A stretch of 64,000 nucleotides of DNA, from positions 33,281 through 97,280 of the forward strand of contig CBFIJD010000004.1 in the NCBI GenBank assembly GCA_965662845.1, in the 5' to 3' direction. Of the stretch, positions 1-14,693 are shown in pieces. Made by a program: the position numbers and the translations under genes. The stretch is from an uncultured bacterium. GTDB taxonomy: Bacteria > SAR324 > NAC60-12. How positions within the stretch are numbered: position 1 is the stretch's first letter; each line of letters opens with the position of its first letter. Under the pieces are notes generated by a model. That model searched no databases and was not told the origin of the DNA. It worked only from the letters and a program-made list of their open reading frames with translations.

Positions 1-264
1 GCACCTGCGGGGAAAGTGACGCTCGGCTTCCGCGCCGAGGACGCGACGCTCCGCGAGACCGGCTCGCTGCGTGGACCGATCTACACGATTGAGATGCTCG
101 GCGACGCCACGATGGTCACGCTGCGCATCGCGGGGGCGCTGGTCACGGTCAAAATGCCGAAAGACTTCCGCGCCGAAATTGGAGACCCTGCGGCGATTGC
201 CGTCGCGCCTGAAGACTGTCATTTGTTTGATTTTGAGAGCGGTCAGCGCCTGCCGACCCCATAA
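1..264 (+). CDS. ABC transporter ATP-binding protein, C-terminal TOBE domain (5'-truncated by window edge)
   Basis: Frame is open from base 1. The pattern 'LGFRAED...IEMLGDATMV...HLFDFESGQRL' is the typical MalK/UgpC C-terminus. Lies directly upstream of a binding protein and two permeases. Confidence 0.85.
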   Translation, partial: APAGKVTLGFRAEDATLRETGSLRGPIYTIEMLGDATMVTLRIAGALVTVKMPKDFRAEIGDPAAIAVAPEDCHLFDFESGQRLPTP

Positions 265-290
265 CTGTCAACCCTGTCGATGAGGTTCAT

Positions 291-1508
291 ATGTTGAAGA
301 AATTCCTATCCATCGCCGCCGTCTTCACGTCGCTTGTCGCGGCTCCGCTGAGCGCTACCGCAGACTGTGACTTCCGCCCGAGCAGCGAGCTTCGCATGCT
401 CTCCAACAGCTTTGAGGCGTGGAAAGCTGTCTCTGACGCCATGGCAGCGTGTGGCAACTTTAAGCCCGAGCTGGACACCGAGTTCCGTGAGAAGCAGCCC
501 GAAGCCTTCGCCGCGAACCCGTCGCTGTATCACCTCGGCGGTGTCACGAACTCAACAATTCAGCCGCTGTTGGACGCCGGCACGATCCGCCCCCTCGACG
601 AGTATGTGCAGAAGTACGGGCAACAGCTCACTGCCAACCAGCTCATCAAAATTGACGGCAAGACCATGGCCGTCGCGATGATGGTCAACAACCAGCACCT
701 GATGTATCGCCAGGATATCTTCCAGGCGCTCAACATCCCCGTGCCGACAACCTACTTTGAACTCCTCGCGGCTGCAGACAAAATCAAGGCTTCTGGCAAA
801 GTCGAATACGCGCTGGGTGGAACCTACAAAGCGGGATGGAACCTCGCAGAAGAGTTCGTGAACATGTACCTCGGGCTAGGCGGAGAGTTCTTTGATGGTA
901 ACCAAGCTGCGATCAACAACGCGCAAGGCGTCCGCGCCTTAGAGATGATGCGCAACCTCACGCACTACATGGACCCTGAATATTTGGTCTCCGACTCAAC
1001 CTATGTGCAGCAGCAATTTCAGCAGGGCAAAATCGCGATGGGCGTGTTGTGGGCGACCCGCGCCGCTGCGATGAACGACGCGAAAGAGAGTCAAGTCGTA
1101 GGCAAAGTCAAGATGGCCGCTGCGCCGCTCGCTCTCGCTGGCAACCTGCCCGCTTCGTCCCTCTGGTGGGACGGCATCGTGATCGCGAAGAACATCTCAG
1201 ACCAAGAGGCCGAGGAAGCCTTTCAGTTGGCCATGGAAGGCCTCGACACCGAGATGGTCCAAGCGCACAACGACGCTGCGGTCTGGCTGATTCAAGGGTA
1301 TCGCCCAGGTGAGCTGGCCGCCGGCGCTGCTGCGACTGCCGAAAACGGCGCGCGGCCCTATCCCACCGGCTCGGCGATGGGGCTGATGCACACCGCACTC
1401 GGCAATAACATCGCTGATTTTCTCACAGGCAAAGAGACCGCCGAGCAGACGCTACGTGACATCGAAGCCGCTTACACCGCCGCTGCCCGTGAGAAGGGCT
1501 TGCTCTAA
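291..1508 (+). CDS. Carbohydrate-type (CUT1) ABC transporter substrate-binding protein
   Basis: Signal peptide (MLKKFLSIAAVFTSLVAAPLSATA), GAGG RBS, 405 aa, SBP_bac_1-like motifs (LMYRQDIF, FQQGKIAM); ABC operon context. Confidence 0.85.
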   Translation: MLKKFLSIAAVFTSLVAAPLSATADCDFRPSSELRMLSNSFEAWKAVSDAMAACGNFKPELDTEFREKQPEAFAANPSLYHLGGVTNSTIQPLLDAGTIRPLDEYVQKYGQQLTANQLIKIDGKTMAVAMMVNNQHLMYRQDIFQALNIPVPTTYFELLAAADKIKASGKVEYALGGTYKAGWNLAEEFVNMYLGLGGEFFDGNQAAINNAQGVRALEMMRNLTHYMDPEYLVSDSTYVQQQFQQGKIAMGVLWATRAAAMNDAKESQVVGKVKMAAAPLALAGNLPASSLWWDGIVIAKNISDQEAEEAFQLAMEGLDTEMVQAHNDAAVWLIQGYRPGELAAGAAATAENGARPYPTGSAMGLMHTALGNNIADFLTGKETAEQTLRDIEAAYTAAAREKGLL

Positions 1509-1526
1509 TCTTCGTCGTCAAGCCTC

Positions 1527-2552
1527 GTGAAACTACGCACTTTCCTCTTCTTCGTCGCGCCGTCTCTGCTGCTGATGAGCGCCTTCATCGCGGGGCCACT
1601 CTTCAGCGTGGCGTGGCAGAGCTTTCATGTCACGCAGCCCGTCTTTGAGACGGTCGAAGTTGAGGTCTGTACGCCTGGGTTTTTGCAGCCCATCTGCAAG
1701 ACAGAAGCCCGCACGCAGCCGGTGTTGGACGACGCTGGGAAGATCATTACCGAGACCAAGTTTGTGGGCTGGGAGAGCTATCGGAACCTGCTCCACCCAG
1801 AGGTCGCGCTGACCGCGCTCCAGCAGGGGCAGTGGGACGCGCTGCTCAACCTAGACTTTTACAAAGCGCTGCGGTTCACCCTGACCTTCACTTTGGTGAC
1901 GCTGCCCTTCGTGTTGGTGGTCGGGTTGCTGGTCGCGCTAGCGGTGAACCAGGCGACGCGGGCGCTCCGTGGACCGATCATCTTTGTGTCGCTGCTGCCT
2001 TTCATCATCACGCCGGTGATCGGAGCGCTCTCGATCCGCTGGCTGTTCGTGGGGGACGGCATCCTCACGGCTTTCCTTGAGTGGTGGCTAGCGCGAGACA
2101 TCGCCCTGTTCGCTCAAGGCTGGACGATCGAGCTGCTGATGCTCTTCTACCGCGTGTGGCACGTCGCGCCGTTCGCGTTTGTTGTGTTCTATGCGGGACT
2201 CCAGACTGTTAACCAAGACACGCTGGAGAGCGCGATTGTGGACGGAGCCTCCCGTTGGCAGCGCATGCGCTATGTGATTTTGCCGCATCTCGCGCCGCTG
2301 GTTGTGTTCATCAGCGTCATTCACTTGATGGATTGCTACCGCGTGTTCGAGGAGGTGATTGGGTTCCGCAGCGAAGCGCATGTCATCTCGTTGCAGTGGC
2401 TCACCTTTGACTTGCTTCGCCCCGACGACAGCGGGAACCGACTCATCAGCAGCGCCTCGGCGTCCTCGATGCTGACGATGGTTGGGATTGTGCTGCTGTT
2501 GATTCCACTGCTACGGCGCACTTGGCGCGATCATCACCAGAGTCGAGGTTAA
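1527..2552 (+). CDS. Carbohydrate ABC transporter permease (MalF/UgpA-like)
   Basis: Multiple TM helices and an EAA loop 'LESAIVDGASRWQ'. Confidence 0.9.
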   Translation: MKLRTFLFFVAPSLLLMSAFIAGPLFSVAWQSFHVTQPVFETVEVEVCTPGFLQPICKTEARTQPVLDDAGKIITETKFVGWESYRNLLHPEVALTALQQGQWDALLNLDFYKALRFTLTFTLVTLPFVLVVGLLVALAVNQATRALRGPIIFVSLLPFIITPVIGALSIRWLFVGDGILTAFLEWWLARDIALFAQGWTIELLMLFYRVWHVAPFAFVVFYAGLQTVNQDTLESAIVDGASRWQRMRYVILPHLAPLVVFISVIHLMDCYRVFEEVIGFRSEAHVISLQWLTFDLLRPDDSGNRLISSASASSMLTMVGIVLLLIPLLRRTWRDHHQSRG

Positions 2553-3692
2553 ATGAGCGAAGCGCCCTTGCCTCGTGCCTTGCGTCCACCGGCGACCTTG
2601 CGTTGGTTCTCTGGAAGTTGCTTAGCCTTTTGGTGTGTGATCGCCGCGTTTCCGCTGTTTTGGATCACCATGATGAGCCTGAAGTTGCCGGTAGACGCCT
2701 TCTCAGAGAACCCGCTTGTCGTGCTTTTGGGACCGAGCACGCGTGAAGCTGGGCCCTCCGTCAGCGCAGCAGACCTCTTGCTCGGCGGCGCGTTTATTTG
2801 GGCGCTGCGCCGCTCGTTTCAGCGGCTTCCGCAGGTCGTAGTGTCTACAGGTTTGCATCCGCTCCTTTGTGGGGCGGCTTGGTTGTGCGGTGGACTGTTG
2901 CTAGCGACCTTGCTCCCAAGCATCGCGCGCGGGTTGGACTTCATCCCGCTGCTGAACACTCCTCTGCTCGGCATTACGCTGGAAAATTTTCGGGCGGTTT
3001 GGGTGGAGCAGGAGTTCACCCGTCAGTTTCTGAACTCTCTGCTCGTCACAGGCGGGGTTGTGAGCATCTCGCTGACGGTTGGGACCTTGGCGGGGTATGG
3101 GATCGCGCGGGCGGGGTCGTCGCTGGCGTTTTGGTTGCTGATGGTCGCGCTGGTGTTTCGCGCGCTGCCTCACTCTGTGCTGGTCTCGGGCTACTTACCG
3201 GTGTTTATCAACTCTGCAGAGCTGCTCCGTCCGCTCTTGGGAGACGCCGCGCCGGTGCTGTACGGCAAACCGTGGGCGATCATCATCGTGTTGGCGTCGA
3301 TCAATCAGCCGTTCACCATCTGGATGTTGCGCTCCTTTTTTCAGAACATCCCACGTGAGCTTGACGAAGCCGCTCGTGTGGATGGTTGCTCCCACATCGG
3401 CGCGTTTGTGCGAGTGATCATGCCGGTGATGTGGCCTGGTGTGATTACCGCAGGGCTGTTCAGTTTTTTGCTGGCCTACAACGACTACTTGGTCGCGGCG
3501 TTGCTGCTCGACATTCAGAATCAAACGATGGTCCCCGCCATTTCGGGGTTCTTTAACCGTGAAACCACCGCCACTGACCAAGTCGAAGCCGTGGCTGCGG
3601 CGGTCTCAATCACCGCGCCCTTGTTTTTGCTCGTGATGATGTTTCAGAAGCAACTTGTCTCCGGTCTCACGCAAGGAGCTGTCAAAGGATGA
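2553..3692 (+). CDS. Carbohydrate ABC transporter permease (MalG/UgpE-like)
   Basis: EAA loop 'IPRELDEAARVDGCS' and typical C-terminus 'QKQLVSGLTQGAVKG'. Confidence 0.9.
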   Translation: MSEAPLPRALRPPATLRWFSGSCLAFWCVIAAFPLFWITMMSLKLPVDAFSENPLVVLLGPSTREAGPSVSAADLLLGGAFIWALRRSFQRLPQVVVSTGLHPLLCGAAWLCGGLLLATLLPSIARGLDFIPLLNTPLLGITLENFRAVWVEQEFTRQFLNSLLVTGGVVSISLTVGTLAGYGIARAGSSLAFWLLMVALVFRALPHSVLVSGYLPVFINSAELLRPLLGDAAPVLYGKPWAIIIVLASINQPFTIWMLRSFFQNIPRELDEAARVDGCSHIGAFVRVIMPVMWPGVITAGLFSFLLAYNDYLVAALLLDIQNQTMVPAISGFFNRETTATDQVEAVAAAVSITAPLFLLVMMFQKQLVSGLTQGAVKG

Positions 3693-4618
3693 GTTTAGAA
3701 ATTGTCCGCTTCGCTGAGCTGATCCCCTGTCGTTCGGCGTTCATCGACGCGCACACGCCGGGTTCTGACCGCAAGGAGAACTACACGATCATTGGCGCAG
3801 GGGTCTCTGAGTCTCCCGACCAGCACGTCCACATCGCCCAAACTCCGGGGTTTAATATCGGAGCGGCCGCGCAACCGGCTGGGTGCACCAACTCCTTGCA
3901 CAGCCACCGCACCGCCGAGGTGTTTCTCATCCACAGCGGCACGTGGCGTTTTTTCTGGGGGCTGTACGGTGACAAAGGCTCCGTCACCGTGAGACCCGGC
4001 GACACCATCAGCTTGCCGACGCACATGTTTCGGGGTTTTGAGAACATCACCCCCCCAACCCCTGAAACGCCAGATGGTTACGGGTTCATGTTCGCGGTCT
4101 TGGGGGGCAACGACGCCGGCGGTGGCGTGGTCTGGGCTCCACAGGTGCTCGAGGCCGCACAGAACCATGGGCTGGTGTTGCTGGAGAATGGCCGCCTGCT
4201 CAACACGAAGCTGGGAGAGACGGCCCCTACGGGCCTGCGCCCCCGCAAAGCGCTGGAGGGCGAAGCGCTCGCGGCGTTCGACCGCAACACCATCCGCGAG
4301 GAGGCCAAGGCGATCGCGCGCCGCGCCCACACCACTGAGTGGATTTTGGGAACCAACGCCGCAGCCAAGCTCCGCGAACGCACAGGCTTTAGCATTCAGC
4401 GCTTGACCTCCGAACACACGCTCTCCCCCGAAGCAGGGCGCCCTTGCGTCGTGATCTGCAACGCGGGCTCGGCCAAGGTCGAGAGCGCCCTGTTAGGAGC
4501 CGGCGATGTGCTGTATGCGGAAGCCGACGCAGCGAATGCGATCTCAGCGGCAGCCAACAGCGAAGTTTTTGTGATCACCCCGACCGATGATCCTGCTGGA
4601 GAAACCACCTACTTGTGA
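3689..4618 (+). CDS. Cupin-domain protein (metal-binding N-terminal cupin plus degenerate second cupin)
   Basis: Cupin motif 1 'SLHSHRTAEVFLIHSGTWRFFWG' and motif 2 'PGDTISLPTHMFRGFEN'; ATGA overlap with the upstream permease. Confidence 0.75.
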   Translation: MSLEIVRFAELIPCRSAFIDAHTPGSDRKENYTIIGAGVSESPDQHVHIAQTPGFNIGAAAQPAGCTNSLHSHRTAEVFLIHSGTWRFFWGLYGDKGSVTVRPGDTISLPTHMFRGFENITPPTPETPDGYGFMFAVLGGNDAGGGVVWAPQVLEAAQNHGLVLLENGRLLNTKLGETAPTGLRPRKALEGEALAAFDRNTIREEAKAIARRAHTTEWILGTNAAAKLRERTGFSIQRLTSEHTLSPEAGRPCVVICNAGSAKVESALLGAGDVLYAEADAANAISAAANSEVFVITPTDDPAGETTYL

Positions 4619-5745
4619 GAAGCCCCATGCCCCTAGCCGTCACGCACGTGGGATCGTTGCCCCGTCGCCAACGCACCGTCGATCAGATCTTTGCCCGAGA
4701 ACGCAACGCGCCGTGGGATCGCGCCACGTTTGATCACATCATGGCGGAGGAAGTCACCGAGACCGTGCGACGCCAAACCGAGGCGGGCGTGAGCATCGTC
4801 AGCGACGGCGAGACCTCCAAGATCTCTTACGCGACCTACGTCAAGGATCGCTACACTGGATTTGATGGTGACAGCCCCCGCCAAGCGCCTGCAGACCTCA
4901 AACAGTTCCCCAGCTTCTTGCAGCGCCTCGCCGACAGCGGCGGCACCCCCACCTACTCCCGCCCTTGCTGCGTGGGCCCTGTGGCGCCCAAGGACGACCA
5001 CGATCTACAAGCCGACATCGCGCATCTCCAAGCGGCGATGCAGCGCTCTGGGGTCGTGGAAGGCTTCCTCAACGCCGCGAGTCCGGGCGTGATCGCTCTG
5101 TTCCTGCCCAATCAGCACTACCCAGACCACGAAAGCTACCTGAACGCGCTGGGGGAAGCCCTCCAGCACGAATACCGCGCCATCATCGACGCCGGGTTGC
5201 AGCTGCAAATTGACTGTCCCGACTTGGCGTTGTCGCGCCACATGCTCTTCATGGACAAGTCAGACGCAGACTTCGTGCGCCTCGCAGATCTGCATGTCAG
5301 CGTACTCAACAACGCGCTCGCAGGGCTGCCCAAAGAGCGCATCCGCCTGCACATCTGCTGGGGCAACTACGAAGGTCCCCACACGTGTGACATCGACATG
5401 GAGCGCGTCTTCTCTACGCTGATGCGTACCCACGCGCAGTACCTCCTGTTTGAGAACGCCAACCCGCGTCATGGCCACGAATGGACCGTCTTCGCCGAAC
5501 GCAGAGCGGAGATCCCTGAAGACAAAGTCCTCGTTCCAGGGGTCGTGGACACAACCACCAACTTTGTGGAGCACCCTCGGTTGGTCACACAGCGGCTGCA
5601 GCGCTTCGTGGAGATTGTCGGACGCGAGCGGGTCGTCGCTGGCACCGACTGTGGCTTCGGGACCTTCGCTGGCTTCGGCGCGGTTGATCCTGAAATCGCG
5701 TATGCCAAATTACAAACCCTCGCACAAGGAGCCGCCGATGTCTGA
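4615..5745 (+). CDS. Cobalamin-independent methionine synthase-like catalytic-domain protein (MetE C-half / epoxyalkane:CoM transferase family)
   Basis: THVGSLPR, SDGE, LQIDCPDL and Zn ligands HIC...E...DCG. At 376 aa it is half the size of MetE. Alternative start is ATG 4627. Confidence 0.85.
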   Translation: MRSPMPLAVTHVGSLPRRQRTVDQIFARERNAPWDRATFDHIMAEEVTETVRRQTEAGVSIVSDGETSKISYATYVKDRYTGFDGDSPRQAPADLKQFPSFLQRLADSGGTPTYSRPCCVGPVAPKDDHDLQADIAHLQAAMQRSGVVEGFLNAASPGVIALFLPNQHYPDHESYLNALGEALQHEYRAIIDAGLQLQIDCPDLALSRHMLFMDKSDADFVRLADLHVSVLNNALAGLPKERIRLHICWGNYEGPHTCDIDMERVFSTLMRTHAQYLLFENANPRHGHEWTVFAERRAEIPEDKVLVPGVVDTTTNFVEHPRLVTQRLQRFVEIVGRERVVAGTDCGFGTFAGFGAVDPEIAYAKLQTLAQGAADV

Positions 5746-6430
5746 GCTCATTTTCGCCGCGATGCGGAAGGTCGACACGCCGACCATCTCCAACGCGTTG
5801 GATGTCATTCTGGGAACGCGCGCTGCCGTCGGCTTCACTCGCTTCCCCACGGTCTGCGCTGATCCACAGCTGCCGCCCGTCGTCGGATATGCTCGCACCG
5901 CCAAGATTCGCGCCGCTTCGGCGCCGTTGTGCTCCCCCGCCGAGGTTCGTGAGCTGCGCCTGCAATACTATGAATTTATGGAAGCCGGAAAACCGCCGGT
6001 CGTGACGGTCATTGAAGACACCGACTGGCCGCACTGCGTGGGGGCGTTTTGGGGGGAAGTCAACACCGCGATTCATAAGGGGCTGGGCGTCGCTGGGGTT
6101 GTCACCAACGGGCTGCTGCGCGACCTGGATGAGCTGGAGCCGGAGTTTCAAGTCATCGCTAGCAATGTCGGCCCGAGCCACGCTTTCGTCCACGTCACTG
6201 AGCTGGACAGTACGGTCAACATCCTCGGCATGACCGTGCGCCCCGGCGACATCATCCACGCCGACCGACACGGTGCGGTCGTGATCGCCCCCGAGCACCT
6301 CGCCGCGATGCCCGCTGCGATCCAAGCCATTCACGACAAAGAAGCCCCGATCCTCGCCGCAGCGCGCGCCGAAGGCTTCTCTGCCGCCAAGTTGCGCGAG
6401 CTTTGGCCCGGCGGCTCTCCCAAACCTTAA
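5738..6430 (+). CDS. RraA/HMG-CHA aldolase family protein
   Basis: DTPTISNAL, GAFWGEVNT, GVVTNGLLRDLD, VRPGDIIHADRHG. Start ATG 5738 follows an AAGGAG RBS; the ORF-track start at 5450 overlaps the previous gene. Confidence 0.85.
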   Translation: MSELIFAAMRKVDTPTISNALDVILGTRAAVGFTRFPTVCADPQLPPVVGYARTAKIRAASAPLCSPAEVRELRLQYYEFMEAGKPPVVTVIEDTDWPHCVGAFWGEVNTAIHKGLGVAGVVTNGLLRDLDELEPEFQVIASNVGPSHAFVHVTELDSTVNILGMTVRPGDIIHADRHGAVVIAPEHLAAMPAAIQAIHDKEAPILAAARAEGFSAAKLRELWPGGSPKP

Positions 6431-6441
6431 CCTGAGCAGCA

Positions 6442-6933
6442 ATGTCCACCACAGAAGCGAACAAACAGCTCGTTGACGATATGTACGACGGCCTCAACCA
6501 GAACGTCTTGGGGCTGATGGAAAAATATTGGAAGGCAGACATGGTCTGGGAAGGACCTGCGGGCATCGGCACCAAGCGTGGCATCGACGCATTTGAGAAC
6601 GACTACCGCAGAGCCTTCATTCACGCCTTTCCTGACAAGCACGCCACCGACCTCGTGCGCATCGCCGAAGGAGACTGGGTCGCAGGCACCGGCTTTCAAG
6701 AAGCCACCTTCGCCAATGCGTGGCTGGGGATCCCTCCGACCAATGAGAAAATTCGCGTCCGCTACATGGACTTCTGGCGCGTTGAGAGAGACGCGACCGG
6801 TGACCCCAAGCTCGCCGAGAATTTAGTCCTGATCGACATCTTGGGCGTGCTGGAGCAAGCCGGATATGACGTCCACAAAGTGCTGAAGTTTGTAGGCTCC
6901 AAGCCGCCCGCGTTTTTTGATGAGGTCACATGA
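6442..6933 (+). CDS. SnoaL-like ester cyclase / NTF2-fold protein (single domain)
   Basis: TEANKQLV, HAFPD, WLGIPPT, MDFWRVE...ENLVLID. Confidence 0.8.
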   Translation: MSTTEANKQLVDDMYDGLNQNVLGLMEKYWKADMVWEGPAGIGTKRGIDAFENDYRRAFIHAFPDKHATDLVRIAEGDWVAGTGFQEATFANAWLGIPPTNEKIRVRYMDFWRVERDATGDPKLAENLVLIDILGVLEQAGYDVHKVLKFVGSKPPAFFDEVT

Positions 6934-7970
6934 GCGCGGTCTCCGCACAAAACCAACAAAACAAACACGCCATTTGGGACTACTGGAACCAGCTGGAACA
7001 AGCCGCGCCTGCCGAGGTCGCTGCGCTGACGCGCGCCTATCAGCGAGGCGACGCTGTGTGGCAGGGCTTCGACCCGCTGAACCGCCTCCCCAACGCAGAA
7101 GCCTTCGCCGACACGTTCTGGAATCCGCTCAACGCCTCGCTTCCCGACCTCAAGCGTGAGACGCACATCTTCATGGGCGGAGCGTCCAGCGGAAACGTCG
7201 ATGGCAGACCAGACGGACAACTTTGGGTCGGAGGGACGGGGTTATTCCACGGCACCTTCGAGCGGGACTGGCTCCTCGGCGGCGTCACGATTCCCGCCAA
7301 CGGACAGCGCGTCGCGATACGCTGGGGCGAGTTTCACCGCATGGAAGAGGGCCGCATCGCGGCGACGTACTGCCTGCTCGACCTTGTGGACTTTCTCAGT
7401 CAAATCGGCGTTGAAGTCCTCCCACCAGCGCGAGGCGCCAACGGAGTCTGGCCAGCACCTGCCAGCCAAGACGGGGTCATGCTCGCAGCGCAAGACTCCG
7501 CGAGCACAGACGCCAGCCGCGACTTGATTCGGCGCTTTCTGTTTGAAGGGCTCAACGCCTATGATCAGTCAGACCTCAGCAGCATGGGCGTCGCCGCGTT
7601 CTTTGCTCCCCACGTGCAGTGGTATGGTCCGGGAGGGATTGGGGCGTGTCGCAGTTTACGAGAGTTTGAAGACTTCCATCAGCGACCTTGGCTCACAGCC
7701 TACCCCGATCGGCAAGTGCAAGACCTCGACTCGCTCTTCGCGGAGGGGAATTACAGCGCTTCTTCGGGTTGGAAGGCGGTCGTCGCGACCCACTCCGGCC
7801 CCTATTTGGACTGCCCTGCGACTCACCGGCAAGTCACATTCAACGGCATCGACTTCTGGCGCAGTGAGGGCAGCCATTATGTCGAGAACTGGGTCTTTGT
7901 GGACATGCTCCACCTCTTCCGTCAATTTGGGGTAGATCTGTTGGCGCGCGTCATGCCCTCCCCGTCTTGA
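6930..7970 (+). CDS. Ester cyclase with two SnoaL-like domains
   Basis: Two SnoaL-type repeats (SLPDL...IPANG...EFHRMEEGRI; AYPDR...THSGPYLDCPAT...DFWR...ENWVFVD); ATGA overlap. Confidence 0.8.
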   Translation: MSAVSAQNQQNKHAIWDYWNQLEQAAPAEVAALTRAYQRGDAVWQGFDPLNRLPNAEAFADTFWNPLNASLPDLKRETHIFMGGASSGNVDGRPDGQLWVGGTGLFHGTFERDWLLGGVTIPANGQRVAIRWGEFHRMEEGRIAATYCLLDLVDFLSQIGVEVLPPARGANGVWPAPASQDGVMLAAQDSASTDASRDLIRRFLFEGLNAYDQSDLSSMGVAAFFAPHVQWYGPGGIGACRSLREFEDFHQRPWLTAYPDRQVQDLDSLFAEGNYSASSGWKAVVATHSGPYLDCPATHRQVTFNGIDFWRSEGSHYVENWVFVDMLHLFRQFGVDLLARVMPSPS

Positions 7971-8012
7971 CGCCACGACTCCCGCAACTCTCTCGCTTCC
8001 CACAGGAGACAC

Positions 8013-9290
8013 ATGATTCGTTATCTGAAAGAAGGCATCAGCGCCGAGACGGCGAAAACCAACCACTCCCAAGTCCGCCAGACGGTGGAGCAGATCTTGG
8101 AAGACATTGAGAAGCGTGGCGACGCCGCTGTGCGCGAGCTCGCGCAAAAGTTCGACAAGTGGGAAAAGCCCACCTTCCGCTTGACCGCAGACGAGATCCA
8201 GGCCGCGGTGCAGGCAGTTCCCGAGTCCACCCAAGCAGACATTCGCTTCGCGCAGACGCAGATCCGCAACTTCGCGCAAGTGCAGCGCTCTGCGATCCAA
8301 GACGTGGAGCAAGAGACGCTGCCGGGCGTGATCCTCGGACACAAAAACGTCCCCGTGAACAGCGTGGGTTGCTATGTGCCCGGTGGGAAATATCCCATGG
8401 TCGCCTCAGCGCACATGAGCGTCGTGACCGCCAAAGTGGCTGGCGTCCCGCGGGTGATTGCCTGCGCTCCGCCGTTTCAGGGAGAGCCGCACCCGGCGAT
8501 CATCACCGCGATGCACTTCGGAGGTGCGGATGAAATTTACTGTCTTGGCGGCGTGCAAGCCGTAGGCGCGATGGCGCTTGGAACGGAGTCCATGCAGCCG
8601 GTGGACATGCTCGTGGGGCCTGGGAACGCCTTTGTCGCAGAAGCCAAGCGTCAGCTCTACGGGCGCGTCGGGATCGACCTCTTCGCCGGCCCAACCGAGA
8701 CCTTGATCATCGCCGATGAGAGCTGCGACGCCGAGCTTTGCGCTGCGGATTTGTTAGGGCAAGCCGAACACGGCGTGAACTCGCCGGCGGTGTTGCTGGT
8801 CAACTCCGAGAAGCTGGCTCATGAGACGATGGCAGAAGTCGAACGTCAGCTGAAGGTGCTCCCCACCGGAGAGACAGCAGGAGCCGCGTGGCGCGATTAT
8901 GGACAAGTGATCGTCTGCGACACCGCCGAAGAGATGGTCGCTCAAGCCGACGAGATTGCCTCCGAACACGTCCAAGTCATGACGCGCGACCCGCAATACT
9001 TCCTTGACCACATGACCAACTACGGCGCCTTGTTCCTCGGGCAAGAGACCAACGTGGCCTATGGCGACAAAGTCATCGGCACCAACCACACGCTCCCCAC
9101 GAGCAAAGCCGCGCGCTACACGGGCGGTCTCTGGGTGGGCAAGTTCCTCAAAACTTGCACCTATCAGTGGGTCAAGACGCCAGAAGCCAGCACGCTCATC
9201 GGTGAATACTGCTCTCGGCTTTGCGCGCTAGAGAACTTCGCCGGACACAAAGAACAGGCGGACATCCGCGTCCGTCGCTACAAAAAGTGA
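8013..9290 (+). CDS. Histidinol dehydrogenase homologue (HisD/HpsN-like NAD-dependent 4-electron dehydrogenase), probably catabolic
   Basis: [31 protein letters not shown] and [13 protein letters not shown] (GDK rather than the canonical GDY); AGGAG RBS; no his genes nearby. Confidence 0.85.
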
Positions 9291-9297
9291 GGTTGTT

Positions 9298-10050
9298 TTG
9301 CAGACAGACCATTTGGCGGGGCGCGTTGCGCTCGTGACGGGGGGCGCAGGCGGGATTGGTTCGGCGATTTGTCAGGCGATCGCCGAGGCTGGCGGAAGAG
9401 TCATCGTCACCTATCACCGCAGTGCCGAGCGAGCAGAAGCGCTGCTGCAGGGGCTCGCGGGCGAGGGACACTCTGGCATGCAGGTGCGCGTGGACGACAG
9501 CCCAATGCTGACGCAGGTAGCCAGCGAAGTCTGGGGCACCTACGGCAAACTCGATCTGCTGGTAAACTGTGCCGGTACCACGCGCTTCGTTCCACATGAC
9601 GACCTCAACGCCTTAGACAACGACTTGATCGACGAGATCTTTCGCGTGAACTGGCGCGGCGCCTTCGCGACCATACGCGCGTTTCAGCCTCTGTTAGCGG
9701 AGAGTGACGACGCGCTGATCGTCAACATCTCGTCCATTGCCGCCGTCTCCGGCATGGGGAGCAACGTCGCTTATTGCGCGTCGAAGGCGGCGCTCGACTC
9801 CATGACACGCTCCCTCGCAAGGGCGCTGGCTCCCAACATTCGCGTGGTTTCGTTGTCTCCCGGCGTTGTCGAGACGGAGTTTATTCAGGGGCTCGACCCG
9901 GCTTGGCTCGAGACGCAACGTGCGCGCACGCCGCTCCAGCGCTTTGTCTCACCCGACGAGATCGGCGCGGCGGTCGTGCAGCTCTACACCACGCTCCGGT
10001 CGCTCACCGGCTGCATCCTCCCCATGGACAGCGGACGCCCGCTGGGGTGA
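9298..10050 (+). CDS. SDR family NAD(P)-dependent oxidoreductase
   Basis: TGGAGGIG, NCAG, catalytic S...YCASK; TTG start after GAGGT. Confidence 0.9.
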   Translation: MQTDHLAGRVALVTGGAGGIGSAICQAIAEAGGRVIVTYHRSAERAEALLQGLAGEGHSGMQVRVDDSPMLTQVASEVWGTYGKLDLLVNCAGTTRFVPHDDLNALDNDLIDEIFRVNWRGAFATIRAFQPLLAESDDALIVNISSIAAVSGMGSNVAYCASKAALDSMTRSLARALAPNIRVVSLSPGVVETEFIQGLDPAWLETQRARTPLQRFVSPDEIGAAVVQLYTTLRSLTGCILPMDSGRPLG

Positions 10051-10118
10051 ACCTTCCTCAAGCCCGATAGGTGCGACAATGGCGCGGCAGCAGCCGCACC
10101 GTCTCGCCCACGCTCCAG
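9901..10118. repeat. 218-bp direct repeat, copy 1 (3' end of SDR gene + 3' end of convergent ABC ATPase gene)
   Basis: Identical to 11749-11966 except G9981 versus A11829 (offset 1848). Confidence 0.97.
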
Positions 10119-10244
10119 CTTTTCCTGAGCAGACATCTGCGTATTGGTTTTTCAATCCTTCAACGAGCTTGCGCGTTGTTATCGTCGATGGCTTCTCTCG
10201 GTTCGACTGTGCGGGTGTCCTGAAGGTCATTTTTAAACCAACTA

Positions 10245-10385
10245 TCAATTTTGCCCTGGCTTTGAAATCTGCGTCGCCCGAACCCCTATTTTCTTATGAC
10301 CGAGGTAAGGTGCTACGATTTTTTCTATAAAAATCTGCTCTGTCTTACCCTCAACGATGGCGACAACCTCAATGTAATTCCTCAT
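10245..10385 (-). pseudogene. Truncated DUF4276/TOPRIM-like partner of the AAA ATPase (46 aa)
   Basis: ATG overlaps the ATPase 3' end. Translates MRNYIEVVAIVEGKTEQIFIEKIVAPYLGHKKIGVRATQISKPGQN*, with the TOPRIM-type VEGxTE motif, then stops. Confidence 0.7.
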
Positions 10386-11505
10386 AGACCGGGCCTCCAT
10401 CAATCACATTTTTAGTCCAGAGCTCACCAACAGAATAGTCTTCCAACCAAGTTGTGAAATCCTCTTCCTTCAGTCGCCGGAAGGTGGATGCGCCACTTTC
10501 ACGATTCACAACGATAACATCCTCAATGGCAAATTGATCAATAAGCGCAGGAGACTGGGTAGCCACAATAACCTGAGTTCGTTTGGCTGCAGCCTGAATC
10601 AGCTCCGCCAGCACCACAATCGCGGCTGGATGCAGTCCCAATTCCGGCTCATCAATCACGATCGTAGAAGGCGGACGCGGTTGCAGTAGCGCAGTGGCAA
10701 GGCAGATAAAGCGAATGGAACCGTCTGAAAGGTGATAGGACTGCATCGGAAAATCCGATCCTTTCTGGTTCCAGCTCAGACGGACTTTTTCGGCCTCACC
10801 CAGTTTTTGTACATCCAGCCGGAAATCATCAAAGAAGGGTATGACCAGACGGACAGCATCAACAATACGTTGATAGTAATCAGGTTCAGAATCTTTAAGC
10901 TCCAATAAAAAAGGAGCAATATTCGCAGCATCTCCTCTCAACTTGTGGAAATCTTCCACGATCTCTGAACGCCGCATGGGCGCATTGGCACTGGTGTCAT
11001 GAAAGTGGTAAACCATCCAGTTGGAGATGGATTCATAGACAAAATGTCCAACGCCATGCCATTGGCCATCCATCGATTTTTCGTTGCGCTCATCATACAA
11101 ACGGCTTTCATCTGATGCGCTCCCATAAGAGCGCCAATTTGTAGATACACATTTACGCTGCTCACTGATCAAAAATTTCTCATCCGCTGTTGGTGTCAGC
11201 TCAAACTTATACGAATTGGTCCCTGTTGCATGATCACTGAGCGAAGCAAATTCAAATTCCATATTGATGCTCGGCGTCACTTTTGGACCATTAAAAAGGA
11301 AGTTGTCAGCACCGCCACGTTCGAGAATAAACTTGCTGAAATTTTTCTCTGTCATCGCCATCAGCATGCGGAAAATCTGTACAAAGTTACTCTTTCCCGC
11401 ACCGTTCGCACCGATAATCACATTCAGATCGCCCAGCTTGAATTCGTTGAGGTCTTTGATAGATTTAAACCCCCTTATGGTCAATTTATCTAAAGACCCT
11501 TTCAT
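10369..11505 (-). CDS. ABC-type AAA ATPase (AAA_21/COG4637-like, SMC/OLD-related), putative defence-system ATPase
   Basis: IRGFKSI, Walker A GANGAGKS, signature LSDG, Walker B/D-loop IVIDEPELGLHP, ATQSP; GGAGG RBS at 11513-11517. Confidence 0.85.
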   Translation of the reverse strand: MKGSLDKLTIRGFKSIKDLNEFKLGDLNVIIGANGAGKSNFVQIFRMLMAMTEKNFSKFILERGGADNFLFNGPKVTPSINMEFEFASLSDHATGTNSYKFELTPTADEKFLISEQRKCVSTNWRSYGSASDESRLYDERNEKSMDGQWHGVGHFVYESISNWMVYHFHDTSANAPMRRSEIVEDFHKLRGDAANIAPFLLELKDSEPDYYQRIVDAVRLVIPFFDDFRLDVQKLGEAEKVRLSWNQKGSDFPMQSYHLSDGSIRFICLATALLQPRPPSTIVIDEPELGLHPAAIVVLAELIQAAAKRTQVIVATQSPALIDQFAIEDVIVVNRESGASTFRRLKEEDFTTWLEDYSVGELWTKNVIDGGPVYEELH

Positions 11506-11524
11506 GGAATAACCTCCGAATTAT

Positions 11525-11552
11525 TTCTGTGTATTCCGTGTATTCTGTGGTT
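11525..11552. repeat. 9-bp-period short tandem repeat TTC(T/C)GTGTA x2 + TTCTGTGGTT
   Basis: Read directly: ttctgtgta ttccgtgta ttctgtggtt; 20 bp upstream of the ATPase start. Confidence 0.8.
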
Positions 11553-11599
11553 CATAAAATTCGAGTGTCTTCCAGGTTTGTGCTGACTCGAGCCGTCCT

Positions 11600-11766
11600 T
11601 GGGGCACGTCCAAATCCGCTGTCCTGCGATTTTGTCTCGTTGTCCACGCAAAGTCGATGGAGGCGTCATCCGAGGCGTAGAGCACCACCCGGTGCTGGCG
11701 GTAGATGCGCAAGCAGAGTCGCTGGTTGCCCGTGAGTACGTTGATGGTGCTTGGCTCGAGACGCAA
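11600..11766 (-). pseudogene. Decayed fragment, possibly of a prophage/ICE-type class II glutamine amidotransferase-like gene
   Basis: Translates RLEPSTINVLTGNQRLCLRIYRQHRVVLYASDDASIDFA, then an apparent frameshift. Family assignment is from memory of similar proteins only. Confidence 0.4.
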
Positions 11767-11966
11767 CGTGCGCGCACGCCGCTCCAGCGCTTTGTCTCAC
11801 CCGACGAGATCGGCGCGGCGGTCGTGCAACTCTACACCACGCTCCGGTCGCTCACCGGCTGCATCCTCCCCATGGACAGCGGACGCCCGCTGGGGTGAAC
11901 CTTCCTCAAGCCCGATAGGTGCGACAATGGCGCGGCAGCAGCCGCACCGTCTCGCCCACGCTCCAG
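11749..11966. repeat. 218-bp direct repeat, copy 2
   Basis: Matches 9901-10118 with one mismatch; contains the functional 3' end of the ABC ATPase gene. Confidence 0.97.
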
Positions 11967-12976
11967 TCGCTGCGAGAAGAGACGCTGACCCGCAAGCGCA
12001 GAGCGTTGTCAAAGCGCACAGAGAGGACCTTGCGCTCACCGTGAAAAGAGACGTCCTCCAGCACCGCTACGCGTCTCGCGACCTCGGGAGCGCGGACGAC
12101 TGCGATGTCCTCTAGCCGGCACATCCACAGCTGGTCGCGCATTTGAGGCTCGTGCGCGAAAGCCTCGACGCCTAACGCTTCCCAGACTTGCAGCAGCGGC
12201 AGCAGGTTCGCCTCTCCCACAAACGAGGCGACCCACGCGGTCGCAGGCTCATGATAAACCGCCTCCGGTGTGCCCGCCTGCACCACTTTTCCCGCCGACA
12301 AGAGCACCATCCGATCCGCGAAAGTGTAGGCTTCGGCTTGGTCGTGTGTCACCAAAATCGCGCTGACCTGGGCTTCGCGTAGAATGTCGCGGATGTCCTG
12401 CCGAATCTGCACCCGCAGCCGATAGTCTAAGCTGTTGAAGGGCTCATCTAAGAGCAGCAAACGTGGCGCAGGGGCCAGAGCGCGGGCAATCGCGATGCGC
12501 TGCTGCTCTCCGCCAGAGAGTTGATGCGGCATTTTCTCTTCGGTGCCAGAGAGCTCGACCAGCTCCAGCATCTCCGCCACACGGCGTCTCTGCTCCGCGC
12601 GAGGCCCTCGCAGACCGAAGCTCACATTTTCATACACGTTCAGGTGCGGAAACAGCGCGATGTCTTGGAACACCATGCCCACGCGGCGTTTCTCTGGAGG
12701 AACCATGCGCTGCGGTGTGCTCATCACCTCTCCGCCAAGCGTGATAGTCCCTTGCTGCGGCTGATCCAGCCCAGCGATCAGGTTCAACAGCGTGGACTTC
12801 CCACAACCTGACGGCCCCAAAATCGAGAGCAACTCCTGCGGCTGAAGCTCTAAGCTGACGCCATCCACAGGCCGCACATTGGGGTAATGGCGCACCAAGT
12901 TGTGGCACTGCAGCAAAAACTCAGAGTCGGTCGGTACGTTCGATTTTCGGCGAAAGAAAGGCATAGCGAGGGGCAT
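11906..12976 (-). CDS. ABC transporter ATP-binding protein (FbpC/PotA-like, Fe3+/polyamine class)
   Basis: GPSGCGKS, VFQDIALFPHL, LSGGEQQR, LLLDEPF, VTHDQ. Start is ATG 12976 or 12964. Confidence 0.88.
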   Translation of the reverse strand: MPLAMPFFRRKSNVPTDSEFLLQCHNLVRHYPNVRPVDGVSLELQPQELLSILGPSGCGKSTLLNLIAGLDQPQQGTITLGGEVMSTPQRMVPPEKRRVGMVFQDIALFPHLNVYENVSFGLRGPRAEQRRRVAEMLELVELSGTEEKMPHQLSGGEQQRIAIARALAPAPRLLLLDEPFNSLDYRLRVQIRQDIRDILREAQVSAILVTHDQAEAYTFADRMVLLSAGKVVQAGTPEAVYHEPATAWVASFVGEANLLPLLQVWEALGVEAFAHEPQMRDQLWMCRLEDIAVVRAPEVARRVAVLEDVSFHGERKVLSVRFDNALRLRVSVSSRSDWSVGETVRLLPRHCRTYRA

Positions 12977-13004
12977 CAGAGCGCGGAGCGCGTTGAAGAA
13001 AAAT

Positions 13005-14693
13005 TCAGTTCGGCTCGGCGGAGAGCTTCTGTTGAGAGCGCTTGCGCATTTCACGCGCGAGCTTGAGCGTTTGAGGCGTGATCTCCGTCCCTCCCATCAG
13101 GCGCGCAAGCTCTTGGATCGCCTCTTGCGCAGAGAGTTGCTGAATCGCGGTGAAGGTTTTGTCGTCCACCACGGACTTGCTCACGGCATAGTGCTGCTGC
13201 GAGAACGCGGCGATTTGCGGCAAATGCGTGATGCAGAGCGTTTGCTGGCGCTTGCCGAGAGACGCAAGCTTGAGTCCCACGATCTCGGCGACTCGCCCGC
13301 TGATGCCTGTGTCCACTTCGTCAAAAATCAGCGTCTCGACCGTGTCAGACGTCAGGATTGTCTGAATCGCGAGCATCACCCGTGAGAGTTCCCCCCCTGA
13401 GGCAACTCGGGCGAGCGGGCGCGGTTCTTGGCCGGGATTGACCGAGAGCAGAAACTCCACGCGGTCTGAGCCCAGCGCCGTGATCTCTGCGGCGTTGACC
13501 TGAATTTCGGTGGCAAAGATGGCTTTCTCCATCCCCAGCTCGCGCAGCTCTCTCTGAATCGCGGCATCAAGCTTGAGGGCCGCTTGCTGGCGGTTTTGTG
13601 AGAGCTCTTGGGCGTGGGCTTGCAGCGTTTGGTACAGCGCGGCGATGCGTTGATCGAGCGCTTCCGCGTCTTCTTCTAAGTGCTCTAAGGCGTCGAGTTC
13701 TTGACGCAGAGTTCGCAGCAAATTTGCCAAGTCTGCAGCCGACTCGACACGGTATTTGCGCTGGAGACTCTGCAAATCGCTGAGCCGATCATTGACCCAA
13801 GCCAGCCGCGAGGGATTGTCTTCGATGCGGTCGGCGCGTCTCGCCAGACCTTGGTGCAGCTCCTCGACTTGGACGAGGCAGGCTTCCAAGGTCTCGAGCA
13901 TCTCGCCGCAGGCAGGGTCGAGGCGCGCGGCGTCAAGCATGCTGCGGCGCACGACGCTGAGCACTTCGGTCGCGGAGCCTTCTTCTTCGTAGAGCGCCGC
14001 CTGCATCTGTGCATAGAGCCCCATCAATTGCTCGGCGTGGCTCAGCAGCTGGGCTTCGGCTTCAAGCTCTCGGTCTTCATCGGCTTGGGGGTTCAGCGTT
14101 TCCAGCTCGGTGCACTGCGCTTCGAGCAGTAGCTGGCGTTCGGTTCTCGCGTTCAGCCGCGACGCCCACTCTTTGCGCTCCCGCGTGGCCTTTTGCCACT
14201 GCTGATGACTCTCGCGGACCGTGTGACGGAGCGACGAGAGGCCGGCGAAGGCGTCCAGAAATGCCAGATGCCGCGAGGGGTCGAGCAGGGACTGGTTGTC
14301 GTGTTGCCCGTGAATGTGCAGCAGCTGCGGCCCAATCTGGGAGAGCAGGGTCTGCGTCACCGAGGTGTTGTTGATGAGGCGCTTCTGGCGGCTTTTGTGG
14401 GTGAGCACGCGGCGCACGATCAGCTCGTCTTCCACAGGGATCTCAGCCTGCGCGAGCTGGGCTTGGAGCTGCGGCTGGTTCTGGATGTCAAACACCGCCT
14501 CGACTTGAGCCTGCGCGGCGCCGTGTCGGATCAAGCCGAAGTCCGCTTTGCCCCCCAAGATCAACTGAATCGCGTCGATCATGATGGACTTCCCCGCGCC
14601 GGTTTCGCCGGTCACGATGGAGAAGCCGCTGGAGAAGTCGACCTCCAGCGCTTCAATCGTCGCGAGGTTGGTGATGCGCAGTTGCAGGAGCAT
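13005..14693 (-). CDS. recN: DNA repair protein RecN
   Basis: TGETGAGKS, IHGQHD, VASGGELSR, LIFDEVDTGISG, CITHLPQIA; 562 aa. Confidence 0.96.
   Translation of the reverse strand: MLLQLRITNLATIEALEVDFSSGFSIVTGETGAGKSIMIDAIQLILGGKADFGLIRHGAAQAQVEAVFDIQNQPQLQAQLAQAEIPVEDELIVRRVLTHKSRQKRLINNTSVTQTLLSQIGPQLLHIHGQHDNQSLLDPSRHLAFLDAFAGLSSLRHTVRESHQQWQKATRERKEWASRLNARTERQLLLEAQCTELETLNPQADEDRELEAEAQLLSHAEQLMGLYAQMQAALYEEEGSATEVLSVVRRSMLDAARLDPACGEMLETLEACLVQVEELHQGLARRADRIEDNPSRLAWVNDRLSDLQSLQRKYRVESAADLANLLRTLRQELDALEHLEEDAEALDQRIAALYQTLQAHAQELSQNRQQAALKLDAAIQRELRELGMEKAIFATEIQVNAAEITALGSDRVEFLLSVNPGQEPRPLARVASGGELSRVMLAIQTILTSDTVETLIFDEVDTGISGRVAEIVGLKLASLGKRQQTLCITHLPQIAAFSQQHYAVSKSVVDDKTFTAIQQLSAQEAIQELARLMGGTEITPQTLKLAREMRKRSQQKLSAEPN

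Follow-up and report, generated by a model that had tools for sequence, protein, structure and literature searches.

A conserved operon in an uncultured marine SAR324 bacterium and its candidate role in the import and breakdown of a polar, methyl-bearing ring compound

The first 10,050 nucleotides of a 64,000-nucleotide stretch of DNA from an uncultured SAR324 bacterium (the window: positions 33281-97280 of contig C4, CBFIJD010000004.1) hold eleven plus-strand genes, packed as an operon that encodes an ATP-binding cassette (ABC) importer, a bicupin, a half-size MetE-like enzyme, an RraA-like protein, two SnoaL proteins, a HisD-like dehydrogenase and a short-chain dehydrogenase/reductase (SDR). 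The operon starts 3.8 kb upstream of the window, whose genes are its 3' two thirds; with the upstream genes read, it becomes a unit of 14 genes and seven SnoaL domains. It is proposed, tentatively and with a confidence that falls a little short of even, that these 14 genes would serve to take up and degrade a polar ring compound that bears a methyl group, and that the pathway would end in pyruvate. The gene set itself is a widely conserved unit and not a chance neighborhood. (The assembly that contains the window amounts to 3.2 Mb in 129 contigs and is 95% complete; the records of its source run describe a marine plankton metagenome.)

Profile searches with Pfam and NCBIfam and the gene coordinates agree with the original prediction of eleven same-strand, tightly packed genes of these families. 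Two of its labels needed amending: both SnoaL proteins are indeed SnoaL, but the second (346 residues) is a tandem of two domains, and the cupin, a member of the Cupin_2 family, is actually a bicupin. Four junctions in the window are overlaps of 4, 4, 8 and 4 nucleotides, nothing separates the two permease genes, and the remaining gaps measure 7-42 nucleotides. (A technical point: the longest open reading frame (ORF) would place the start of the RraA-like gene at 5450, which is wrong; the gene starts at an ATG at 5738, behind a GGAG and 8 bases before the stop of the MetE-like gene.) A scan for promoters and terminators inside the operon returned background counts only, which are compatible with one transcript and are no evidence for it; a look-up of public sequencing runs containing this DNA listed no RNA run.

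How far does this arrangement extend? With the MetE-like protein as the query for all neighborhood work, an ortholog of 76-78% identity was found in eight of eight genomes of the same genus and, at E <= 1e-100, in 19 of the 72 genomes of the phylum, including 17 of the 35 of the family (the window's own genome left out). The importer, SnoaL genes and cupin surround the MetE-like gene in six of 14 fetched loci of SAR324-type relatives; in a seventh, which runs off its contig, the cupin and SDR are the only neighbors of this kind; the other seven, which hold one homolog of 57% identity and six of 36-41% from another family, are without other cluster genes (six have the MetE-like gene alone, and one adds a 30% SDR match). 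In two relatives (G005 and G007) the contig with the cluster also carries the HisD-like gene, at 85-86% identity.

A one-genome-per-species scan yielded 585 relatives, and its best 80 loci, mostly from Rhodobacteraceae, were searched with the window proteins (tblastn). Partners found there were the tandem SnoaL protein in 65, the cupin in 63, the HisD-like enzyme in 47, the SDR in 41, the ATPase in 36 and the RraA-like protein in 26; these counts are lower bounds because the flanks measure at most 10 kb and many contigs are short. In a census of families at 75 loci of at least 12 kb, the MetE-like gene is present in all 75, tandem SnoaL genes in 66 and 59, the cupin in 62, an alpha/beta hydrolase in 58, a LacI regulator in 57, the HisD-like enzyme and the SDR in 46 each, RraA in 24 and a BioC/Tam-like S-adenosylmethionine (SAM) methyltransferase in 14. 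The roseobacter alpha/beta hydrolase is nearest to the PcaD enol-lactonase and to BioH, and the LacI regulator to RbsR. An annotated 17-gene version, on plasmid pTHAF33_a of Ruegeria sp. THAF33, includes a divergent Amidohydro_2 and tandem-SnoaL pair. An ortholog of the MetE-like protein (E <= 1e-120) is present in 124 of 301 sampled genomes of the family of Litoreibacter (Rhodobacteraceae), and the protein database holds at least 8000 MetE-like matches at E <= 1e-20; among the best 120 of these, all that come from other DNA are 69-78% identical. The original prediction had been staked on the genes occurring together in other genomes; they do so across many, and its picture of a coherent import-plus-catabolism operon stands. 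Its notion of a complete pathway is not supported: the operon is larger than the part it covered, and roseobacters add the LacI regulator, the alpha/beta hydrolase and sometimes the SAM methyltransferase.

Could the set be a mosaic of unrelated functions, with no single pathway and with the MetE-like protein as a spare methionine synthase? The shuffling of gene order between lineages can be cited for such a view, as can some Marivita genomes in which nothing of the cluster remains but the MetE-like and alpha/beta hydrolase genes, in different surroundings, and the seven lower-identity loci of the SAR324 order described above. It is nonetheless highly improbable in the face of overlapping stop and start codons through the operon, of the occurrence of the same families together across Bacteria and on a haloarchaeal plasmid, and of the confinement of the genome's SnoaL matches to the operon (all six PF07366 matches lie inside it). 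The genome also has a full MetH (1687 bits), and the MetE-like enzyme is therefore not the housekeeping methionine synthase.

What the MetE-like protein does instead is suggested by its residues. It is the sole PF01717 match in the genome. When it is aligned to the C-terminal half of E. coli MetE together with four bacterial and archaeal family members, its residues S14, E66, D200, H246, C248 and C346 are invariant and correspond to E. coli S433, E484, D599, H641, C643 and C726; Ser433, Glu484 and Asp599 are taken to bind homocysteine, and the His-x-Cys, the Glu and the last Cys presumably ligate zinc. The zinc-ligand His-x-Cys and Cys and the homocysteine residues of MetE are thus in place, and the motifs are held in 71-75 of 75 orthologs. 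Methyl transfer to homocysteine is the probable, predicted function. In Novosphingobium and Halobellus, MetE-like genes adjoin genes of the GcvT-family demethylase type. Core methionine synthases that take the methyl group from non-folate donors are known (PMC7857596), and the accessible text of that source describes none of them with SnoaL partners. In P. inhibens, the mutant of a "Mes-like" gene is without a lag-phase phenotype, as far as the accessible part of PMC12366255 goes. A sequence search of solved structures gave the MetE-like and RraA-like proteins one distant, uncharacterized match each.

The HisD-like protein, judged by its motifs, belongs to a third clade of the HisD/HpsN family. 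Its best solved relatives are HpsN structures (8v35 at E 4.3e-121, as against 5.5e-83 for the best HisD). As set out in the accessible text of PMC11382572, the HpsN motif is G-R-Y-A/S-H, of which the last residue, His126, binds sulfonate while Lys353 provides a second contact; HisD has G-S-A-P-L; and enzymes of both kinds bind a 2-amino or 2-hydroxy alcohol via zinc. The window protein has G-K-Y-P-M, which is neither the sulfonate-binding motif nor the biosynthetic one of the G-S-A-P-L type, together with the G-D-K of the HpsN Asp352-Lys353 loop (G-D-Y in HisD). This combination, G-K-F/Y-P-M with G-D-K, recurs in 45 of 47 cluster orthologs. The genome of Litoreibacter arenae encodes a cluster-type paralog, a G-R-Y-A-H paralog and a HisD-type paralog (G-L-A-S-Y-P, G-D-Y), three in all, and a SAR324 relative has a G-R-Y-S-H paralog outside the cluster; the two true-HpsN-motif paralogs lie at L122 (G077:C7:296800-298200) and L124 (G005:C339:21850-23200). 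In the window's own genome, PF00815 matches nothing besides the cluster copy and a short fragment at one end of contig C32. (The accessible text of the AGeNNT paper, PMC5445326, is silent on HisD paralogs.) A motif of its own, coexisting with true HpsN and HisD paralogs, makes a sulfonate substrate unlikely and argues for the third clade. The residue pattern would suit a 2-hydroxy (or 2-amino) primary alcohol with a non-sulfonate anionic group, most simply a carboxylate.

These observations bear directly on a quite different proposal, that the cluster is a pathway for 2,3-dihydroxypropanesulfonate (DHPS) or another C3-sulfonate, in which the HisD-like enzyme would be HpsN, oxidizing DHPS (or sulfolactaldehyde from a sulfo-sugar) to sulfolactate, and the rest would be accessory. 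That the best solved relatives are HpsN structures, that Lys353 (G-D-K) is retained, and that the binding protein weakly matches the sulfoquinovosyl-glycerol binder SmoF (E 1.8e-8) all fit. Against this stand the replacement of the His126 motif in the window protein and in 45 of 47 cluster orthologs, the separate true-HpsN-motif paralogs of Litoreibacter arenae and the SAR324 relative, the lack of an Xsc at cut-off in the genome, and the lack of SuyAB, a sulfite exporter or a desulfonating enzyme in any cluster version examined; the proposal is left with hardly any probability. The "sulfur-containing" metabolite of the original prediction finds no support, with the sulfonate-binding His missing and no Xsc reaching its cut-off in the genome, and its "epoxide opening" found no evidence in support. 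D-cysteinolate was also considered as a substrate of the HisD-like enzyme and rejected: the cysteinolate-oxidizing HpsN enzymes retain the HpsN binding residues, according to the accessible part of PMC12814064.

The remaining enzymes are more loosely placed. A model of the cupin, built from a 41-row alignment, is a bicupin (predicted local distance difference test score 90.6) in which H71, H73 and E77 (H-x-H-x3-E) are invariant in 41 orthologs; its top structural neighbors are the pirin YhhW (Z 18.2) and the quercetinases, YxaG and fungal (Z 17), at the head of a long series of bicupins at Z 16. A sequence search of solved structures with the bicupin found nothing at E <= 0.1, and an Atlas search returned unnamed cupin clusters only. 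The single SnoaL protein has the PF07366 fold, and its nearest solved chain is a "predicted ester cyclase" (8ysb, E 1.3e-8). The seven SnoaL domains, among them both halves of the window's tandem protein, align mutually and are paralogs of one kind, with a common P-D, Thr and late Asp. No polyketide synthase gene was found in the operon or in the roseobacter and haloarchaeal versions. The RraA-like protein reads G-L-L-R-D where 24 of 24 roseobacter orthologs have G-x-x-R-D; the Arg-Asp is taken to be the catalytic dyad of this fold. It scores below the cut-offs for 4-hydroxy-4-methyl-2-oxoglutarate and 4-carboxy-4-hydroxy-2-oxoadipate (CHA) aldolases (29.5 bits vs 179 for NF006731, 26.3 vs 304.5 for TIGR02798). 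The Amidohydro_2 enzyme, encoded upstream of the window, is nearest to L-fucono-1,5-lactonase at 104 bits, below the equivalog cut-off of 400, and its best solved relative is 4dlf (E 1.5e-16).

The importer has the full set of CUT1 components: an SBP_bac_1 binding protein, two permeases of the MalF/MalG type and a MalK-type ATPase with TOBE domain. The nearest solved relatives of the binding protein bind sugars, sorbitol and sulfoquinovosyl-glycerol; all are distant matches, the best a partial one at E 1.3e-16. Is the importer alive? In the assembly the ATPase gene begins M-A-D-I-stop, with an in-frame TAA at codon 5 (positions 11215-11229 of L002, the locus that includes the 12 kb upstream and in which a position equals the window position plus 12000; 772-786 nucleotides upstream of the window). 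Relatives have Gln, Glu or Lys at this codon, and contigs from three public runs, two of them possibly from the source sample, have G for T, giving GAA (Glu). Because the public contigs read GAA, the stop is poor evidence for a dead importer; going by these sequences, it is a strain variant or an assembly error.

Two remote versions of the cluster are instructive. A plasmid of the haloarchaeon Halobellus limi carries four tandem SnoaL genes, one single SnoaL gene and a 41% MetE-like gene, in the company of an MBL hydrolase, an oxidoreductase and aldehyde dehydrogenase, an ABC importer, an IclR regulator, a GcvT-family aminomethyltransferase, two VOC proteins and an HpcH/citrate-lyase-type aldolase. 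On plasmid pLA3 of Novosphingobium pentaromativorans US6-1 (L108 12001-19898), a MetE-like gene (48% identity) and a 133-residue NTF2 gene overlap and have as neighbors an IclR regulator, a GcvT-family aminomethyltransferase, an alpha/beta hydrolase, metF, purU and ligAB; this hints that the MetE-like and NTF2 pair handles methyl groups in aromatic O-demethylation loci. We infer that the genes that differ in these two versions are non-orthologous replacements, in which case the activities needed are alcohol-to-acid oxidation, a hydrolase, a ring-cleaving metalloenzyme, a pyruvate aldolase and methyl handling.

How might these activities be combined? The steps offered here come from the chemistry of the families; gene content, conservation and residue patterns are the observed part. 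1) The CUT1 ABC importer would take up a small, very polar compound. 2) The seven SnoaL-fold domains would act as acid/base catalysts, without a cofactor, on a cyclic enone or enol (removal of a substituent, isomerization, dehydration or retro-aldol cleavage). 3) The MetE-like zinc enzyme would move a methyl group onto the homocysteine thiolate, yielding methionine. 4) The SDR and the HisD-like enzyme would carry out redox steps, the latter turning into COOH a CH2OH that is next to a carbinol and has an anionic group, probably a carboxylate, two atoms away. 5) The bicupin would open a ring or enediol with O2. 6) The Amidohydro_2 enzyme would hydrolyze a lactone or hydrate a product. 7) The RraA-like aldolase would split a 4-hydroxy-2-oxo acid into pyruvate and a second acid. 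The compound that such a pathway would consume should be small and very polar, a ring or derived from one, with a transferable methyl group and a carbinol-CH2OH (1,2-diol) unit, and its source is probably algae. That it is "cyclic", as first proposed, is plausible.

Several observations weigh against this scheme. The RraA of the same-genus relatives consists only of 38-44% copies on other contigs, and an RraA gene is present in only the 24 of 75 census loci. The alpha/beta hydrolase and LacI regulator of the roseobacters are missing from the SAR324 operon. Enzyme matches to characterized families fall far below curated cut-offs, the generic HisD model excepted. The scheme offers no concrete account of what seven SnoaL domains do. 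Among the structural neighbors of the bicupin there is a tie at Z 16-18 between dioxygenases, decarboxylases and seed storage proteins, and its motif-2 His is not conserved; oxygenase chemistry is consequently a guess. Finally, the MAFFT alignment pairs the conserved E280 of the MetE-like protein with E. coli E675, 10 residues off the zinc ligand E665; judged from the sequences, E280 is probably the fourth zinc ligand, equivalent to E665.

Much of the same inventory can be arranged as a non-phosphorylative oxidative route for a sugar or cyclitol that is methylated or branched, such as O-methyl inositols, methylated hexoses or C7 cyclitols. In such a route the SDR would come first, as 1-dehydrogenase, followed by a lactonase, SnoaL-type dehydratases or isomerases, the cupin as an isomerase (not an oxygenase) and an aldolase that delivers pyruvate, with the O-methyl group removed by the MetE-like enzyme. 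A CUT1 importer whose binding protein has its closest solved relatives among polyol and sugar binders, the kinship of the roseobacter LacI regulator with RbsR, that of the SDR with glucose 1-dehydrogenase and of the Amidohydro_2 enzyme with L-fucono-1,5-lactonase, and two different aldolase families in different lineages give this arrangement a real, if minor, chance of being right. It is unlikely all the same: no kinase, no sugar-acid dehydratase of the enolase or IlvD type and no glycosidase appears in any version examined; zinc thiolates do not readily take the methyl group from an ordinary alkyl methyl ether; and in Halobellus the bicupin is replaced by VOC proteins of the dioxygenase type, so that ring cleavage fits better than sugar isomerization.

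Ring cleavage raises in turn the catabolism of a methoxylated aromatic, a lignin- or alga-derived phenolic with a side-chain diol, along the lines of the 4,5-cleavage route of syringate, gallate and protocatechuate: O-demethylation, extradiol-type ring cleavage, lactone hydrolysis and a CHA-type aldolase. The remote versions are what recommends it, with aminomethyltransferase, metF, purU and ligAB adjoining the MetE-like and NTF2 genes in Novosphingobium pentaromativorans, and aminomethyltransferase, VOC proteins and an HpcH-type aldolase in Halobellus; the Amidohydro_2 and RraA-like proteins, moreover, presumably belong to the families of LigI/LigJ and LigK, respectively, to which they show weak model matches. 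It must be called improbable, since a sugar-type importer and a LacI regulator are unusual for aromatic acids, since no LigAB, LigC or GcvT-type gene is present in the SAR324 or roseobacter versions, and since a benzyl alcohol is without the 2-amino or 2-hydroxy group that, in the accessible text of PMC11382572, is bound by the HisD/HpsN zinc.

To return to the breakdown of a polar, methyl-bearing ring compound: which compound? The leading guess, made from chemical reasoning only and doubtful enough to be more of a pointer than an assignment, is that the operon would be the bacterial route for mineralizing mycosporine-like amino acids and gadusol, which serve algae, corals and saltern cyanobacteria as sunscreens and osmolytes. 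The SnoaL domains would strip the amino-acid substituents off the cyclohexenimine ring to give 4-deoxygadusol; the MetE-like enzyme would move the enol-ether methyl group to homocysteine, leaving methionine and a cyclic reductone; and the bicupin would cleave this reductone, as acireductone or quercetin dioxygenases do theirs, to -OOC-CH2-C(OH)(CH2OH)-CH2-CO-COO-. The HisD-like enzyme would then oxidize the C5 hydroxymethyl group in -OOC-CH2-C(OH)-CH2OH, a carboxylate mimic of DHPS, and the product, 4-carboxy-4-hydroxy-2-oxoadipate, would be a substrate for an RraA-family aldolase that yields pyruvate and oxaloacetate. If true, this would explain together the methyl, hydroxymethyl, ring, lactone/enol and aldolase features, as well as the occurrence of the cluster in alga-, coral- and saltern-associated microbes. 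Bacteria are stated in a review to convert shinorine and porphyra-334 to mycosporine-glycine and 4-deoxygadusol, the enzymes not being named in its accessible text (PMC3083659). The idea of ascorbate catabolism would leave the MetE-like enzyme unexplained.

The cluster is common, with its signature ortholog in some two fifths of the sampled genomes of one major marine bacterial family, and so wide a distribution implies that bacteria consume, through no known genes, a compound plentiful in the sea and in salterns. Once identified, this compound would become a further term in the accounting of marine carbon flow. The HisD/HpsN family would gain a third specificity, MetE-like enzymes a new, methyl-harvesting kind, and tandem SnoaL proteins a catalytic function beyond the making of antibiotics. 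No described pathway is matched by this combination of families in the literature searched, as the original prediction had said: nothing agrees gene for gene, and no paper there has four of the six family names together. These searches covered the family combination and mycosporine catabolism, in a literature that takes in few subscription journals and no supplements.

The genes of the operon are collected in Table 1. Its end is placed at 10050, because the G+C fraction falls from ~0.62 to 0.50 directly 3' of the SDR gene and a minus-strand ATPase of the HEC-01A type follows downstream. At the other end, two large ORFs upstream of the operon (L002 4844-6307, minus strand; L002 6480-8042, plus strand) have no Pfam or NCBIfam family; they are not beside the cluster in relatives and are therefore excluded.

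Table 1. Genes of the operon, in window positions or, where so marked, in positions of locus L002
Feature	Position	Strand	Evidence
Tandem-SnoaL gene, upstream of window	L002 8199-9236	same strand	
Amidohydro_2 gene, lactonase-like, upstream of window	L002 9223-10110	same strand	
Second upstream tandem-SnoaL gene	L002 10134-11102	same strand	
ABC ATPase, 5' part	from L002 11215, 786 nt upstream of window	same strand	full gene: ABC_tran + OB_MalK + TOBE
ABC importer ATPase, 3' end (MalK/UgpC type, TOBE)	1-264	+	TOBE_2 E 2.6e-8 (Pfam)
Periplasmic substrate-binding protein, sugar/polyol (CUT1) type	291-1508	+	SBP_bac_1 E 4.9e-20; SBP_bac_1/8
ABC permease 1 (UgpA/MalF-like)	1527-2552	+	BPD_transp_1; best NCBIfam UgpA, far below cut-off
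ABC permease 2 (MalG/UgpE-like)	2553-3692	+	BPD_transp_1 E 3.7e-19; best NCBIfam GlcU/MalG, below cut-off
Bicupin metalloenzyme, probable ring- or enediol-cleaving dioxygenase (predicted)	3689-4618	+	Cupin_2, weak match
Half-size MetE-like Zn enzyme (376 aa), probable methyl transfer to homocysteine (predicted)	4615-5745	+	Meth_synt_2 E 1.7e-12
RraA-like protein, probable class II pyruvate aldolase / oxaloacetate-type decarboxylase	5738-6430	+	RraA-like PF03737 E 4.8e-20
Single-domain SnoaL/NTF2-fold protein	6442-6933	+	SnoaL E 4e-15
Tandem double SnoaL/NTF2-fold protein (346 aa)	6930-7970	+	SnoaL E 2.4e-17, C-terminal half
HisD/HpsN-family 4-electron alcohol-to-acid dehydrogenase, third clade by motif	8013-9290	+	Histidinol_dh E 1.5e-140
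SDR, last gene of the operon	9298-10050	+	adh_short_C2 E 3.3e-46; best NCBIfam glucose 1-dehydrogenase subfamily, below cut-off

The minus-strand ATPase (378 residues) is a full-length match (E 3.4e-141) to the PADLOC candidate defense protein HEC-01A and lies inside an islet of 50-52% G+C right behind the operon; a 91-residue ORF (11502-11777) that overlaps it on its upstream side has no match, and the two together take up window 10369-11777. Behind the islet, on the minus strand from 11906 to 14693, come a PhnT2/PotA-like ABC ATPase (11906-13054) and recN (13005-14693; TIGR00634, 510 bits, above cut-off), both ordinary genes outside the operon. A further observation concerns Marivita, where at two loci (L081 and L079, ~9992-11839) the MetE-like gene retains only its alpha/beta hydrolase neighbor, in an unrelated context of amidohydrolase, inositol-monophosphatase-family and RimK genes; this pair may be a working unit of its own.

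Parts of the operon resemble parts of known systems. With HpsN, the (R)-DHPS 3-dehydrogenase, and the hpsNOP-suyAB pathway of DHPS degradation in Cupriavidus pinatubonensis (8v35, 8wwe) it has the PF00815 fold and the Asp-Lys pair in common, and its SDR adjoins the HisD-like gene as HpsO/HpsP adjoin HpsN in the accessible account of PMC11382572. Unlike the DHPS pathway, the cluster does not keep the His126 motif, has no desulfonation genes and uses a CUT1 ABC importer rather than a TRAP or MFS (tripartite ATP-independent periplasmic or major facilitator superfamily) transporter; beyond it, the cluster has the MetE-like, bicupin, SnoaL-array and aldolase genes. The modeled bicupin resembles quercetin 2,3-dioxygenases and pirins (1y3t, 1juh, 1tq5) in its fold and in what would be a single N-terminal H-x-H-x3-E site, at Z 17-18 and a root-mean-square deviation of ~3.2 Å over ~214 residues, but at 12-15% identity; a clear quercetinase or pirin identity does not follow, with other bicupins within 2 Z units and no conserved motif-2 His.

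The lower pathway of protocatechuate 4,5-cleavage and of gallate uses LigI, LigJ and LigK/GalC. Like it, the operon would place an Amidohydro_2 hydrolase and an RraA-family aldolase behind an oxygenolytic ring cleavage; the resemblance consists in weak model matches, to a chain like the 2-pyrone-4,6-dicarboxylate hydrolase and to LigK, that are far below curated cut-offs. The operon differs in having a bicupin instead of LigAB, and in its import and upper pathway. MesA-D and the catalytic half of MetE share with the MetE-like enzyme a half-size PF01717 barrel without the folate-binding domain and with aligned zinc and homocysteine residues, and MesA-D share also the general idea of bringing a non-folate methyl group to homocysteine, as far as the accessible text of PMC7857596 shows. 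Unlike MesA-D, the MetE-like enzyme is encoded in a catabolic operon, with SnoaL-fold partners, in a genome that has MetH, and with no corrinoid protein or MesX seen.

The last comparison is with antibiotic biosynthesis. The enzyme set of the fourth anthracycline ring consists of a SnoaL/AknH ester cyclase, a ketoreductase SDR, a methyl esterase and a SAM methyltransferase. The same four families come together in these clusters: the SnoaL domains are nearest to solved "ester cyclases", and the BioC/Tam-like methyltransferase (14 of 75 loci) and the BioH/PcaD-like hydrolase (58 of 75) match the other two. Unlike the anthracycline set, the cluster is without a polyketide synthase, has an importer and a repressor, and stands in a catabolic context; its SnoaL domains would more probably catalyze ring opening or hydrolysis.

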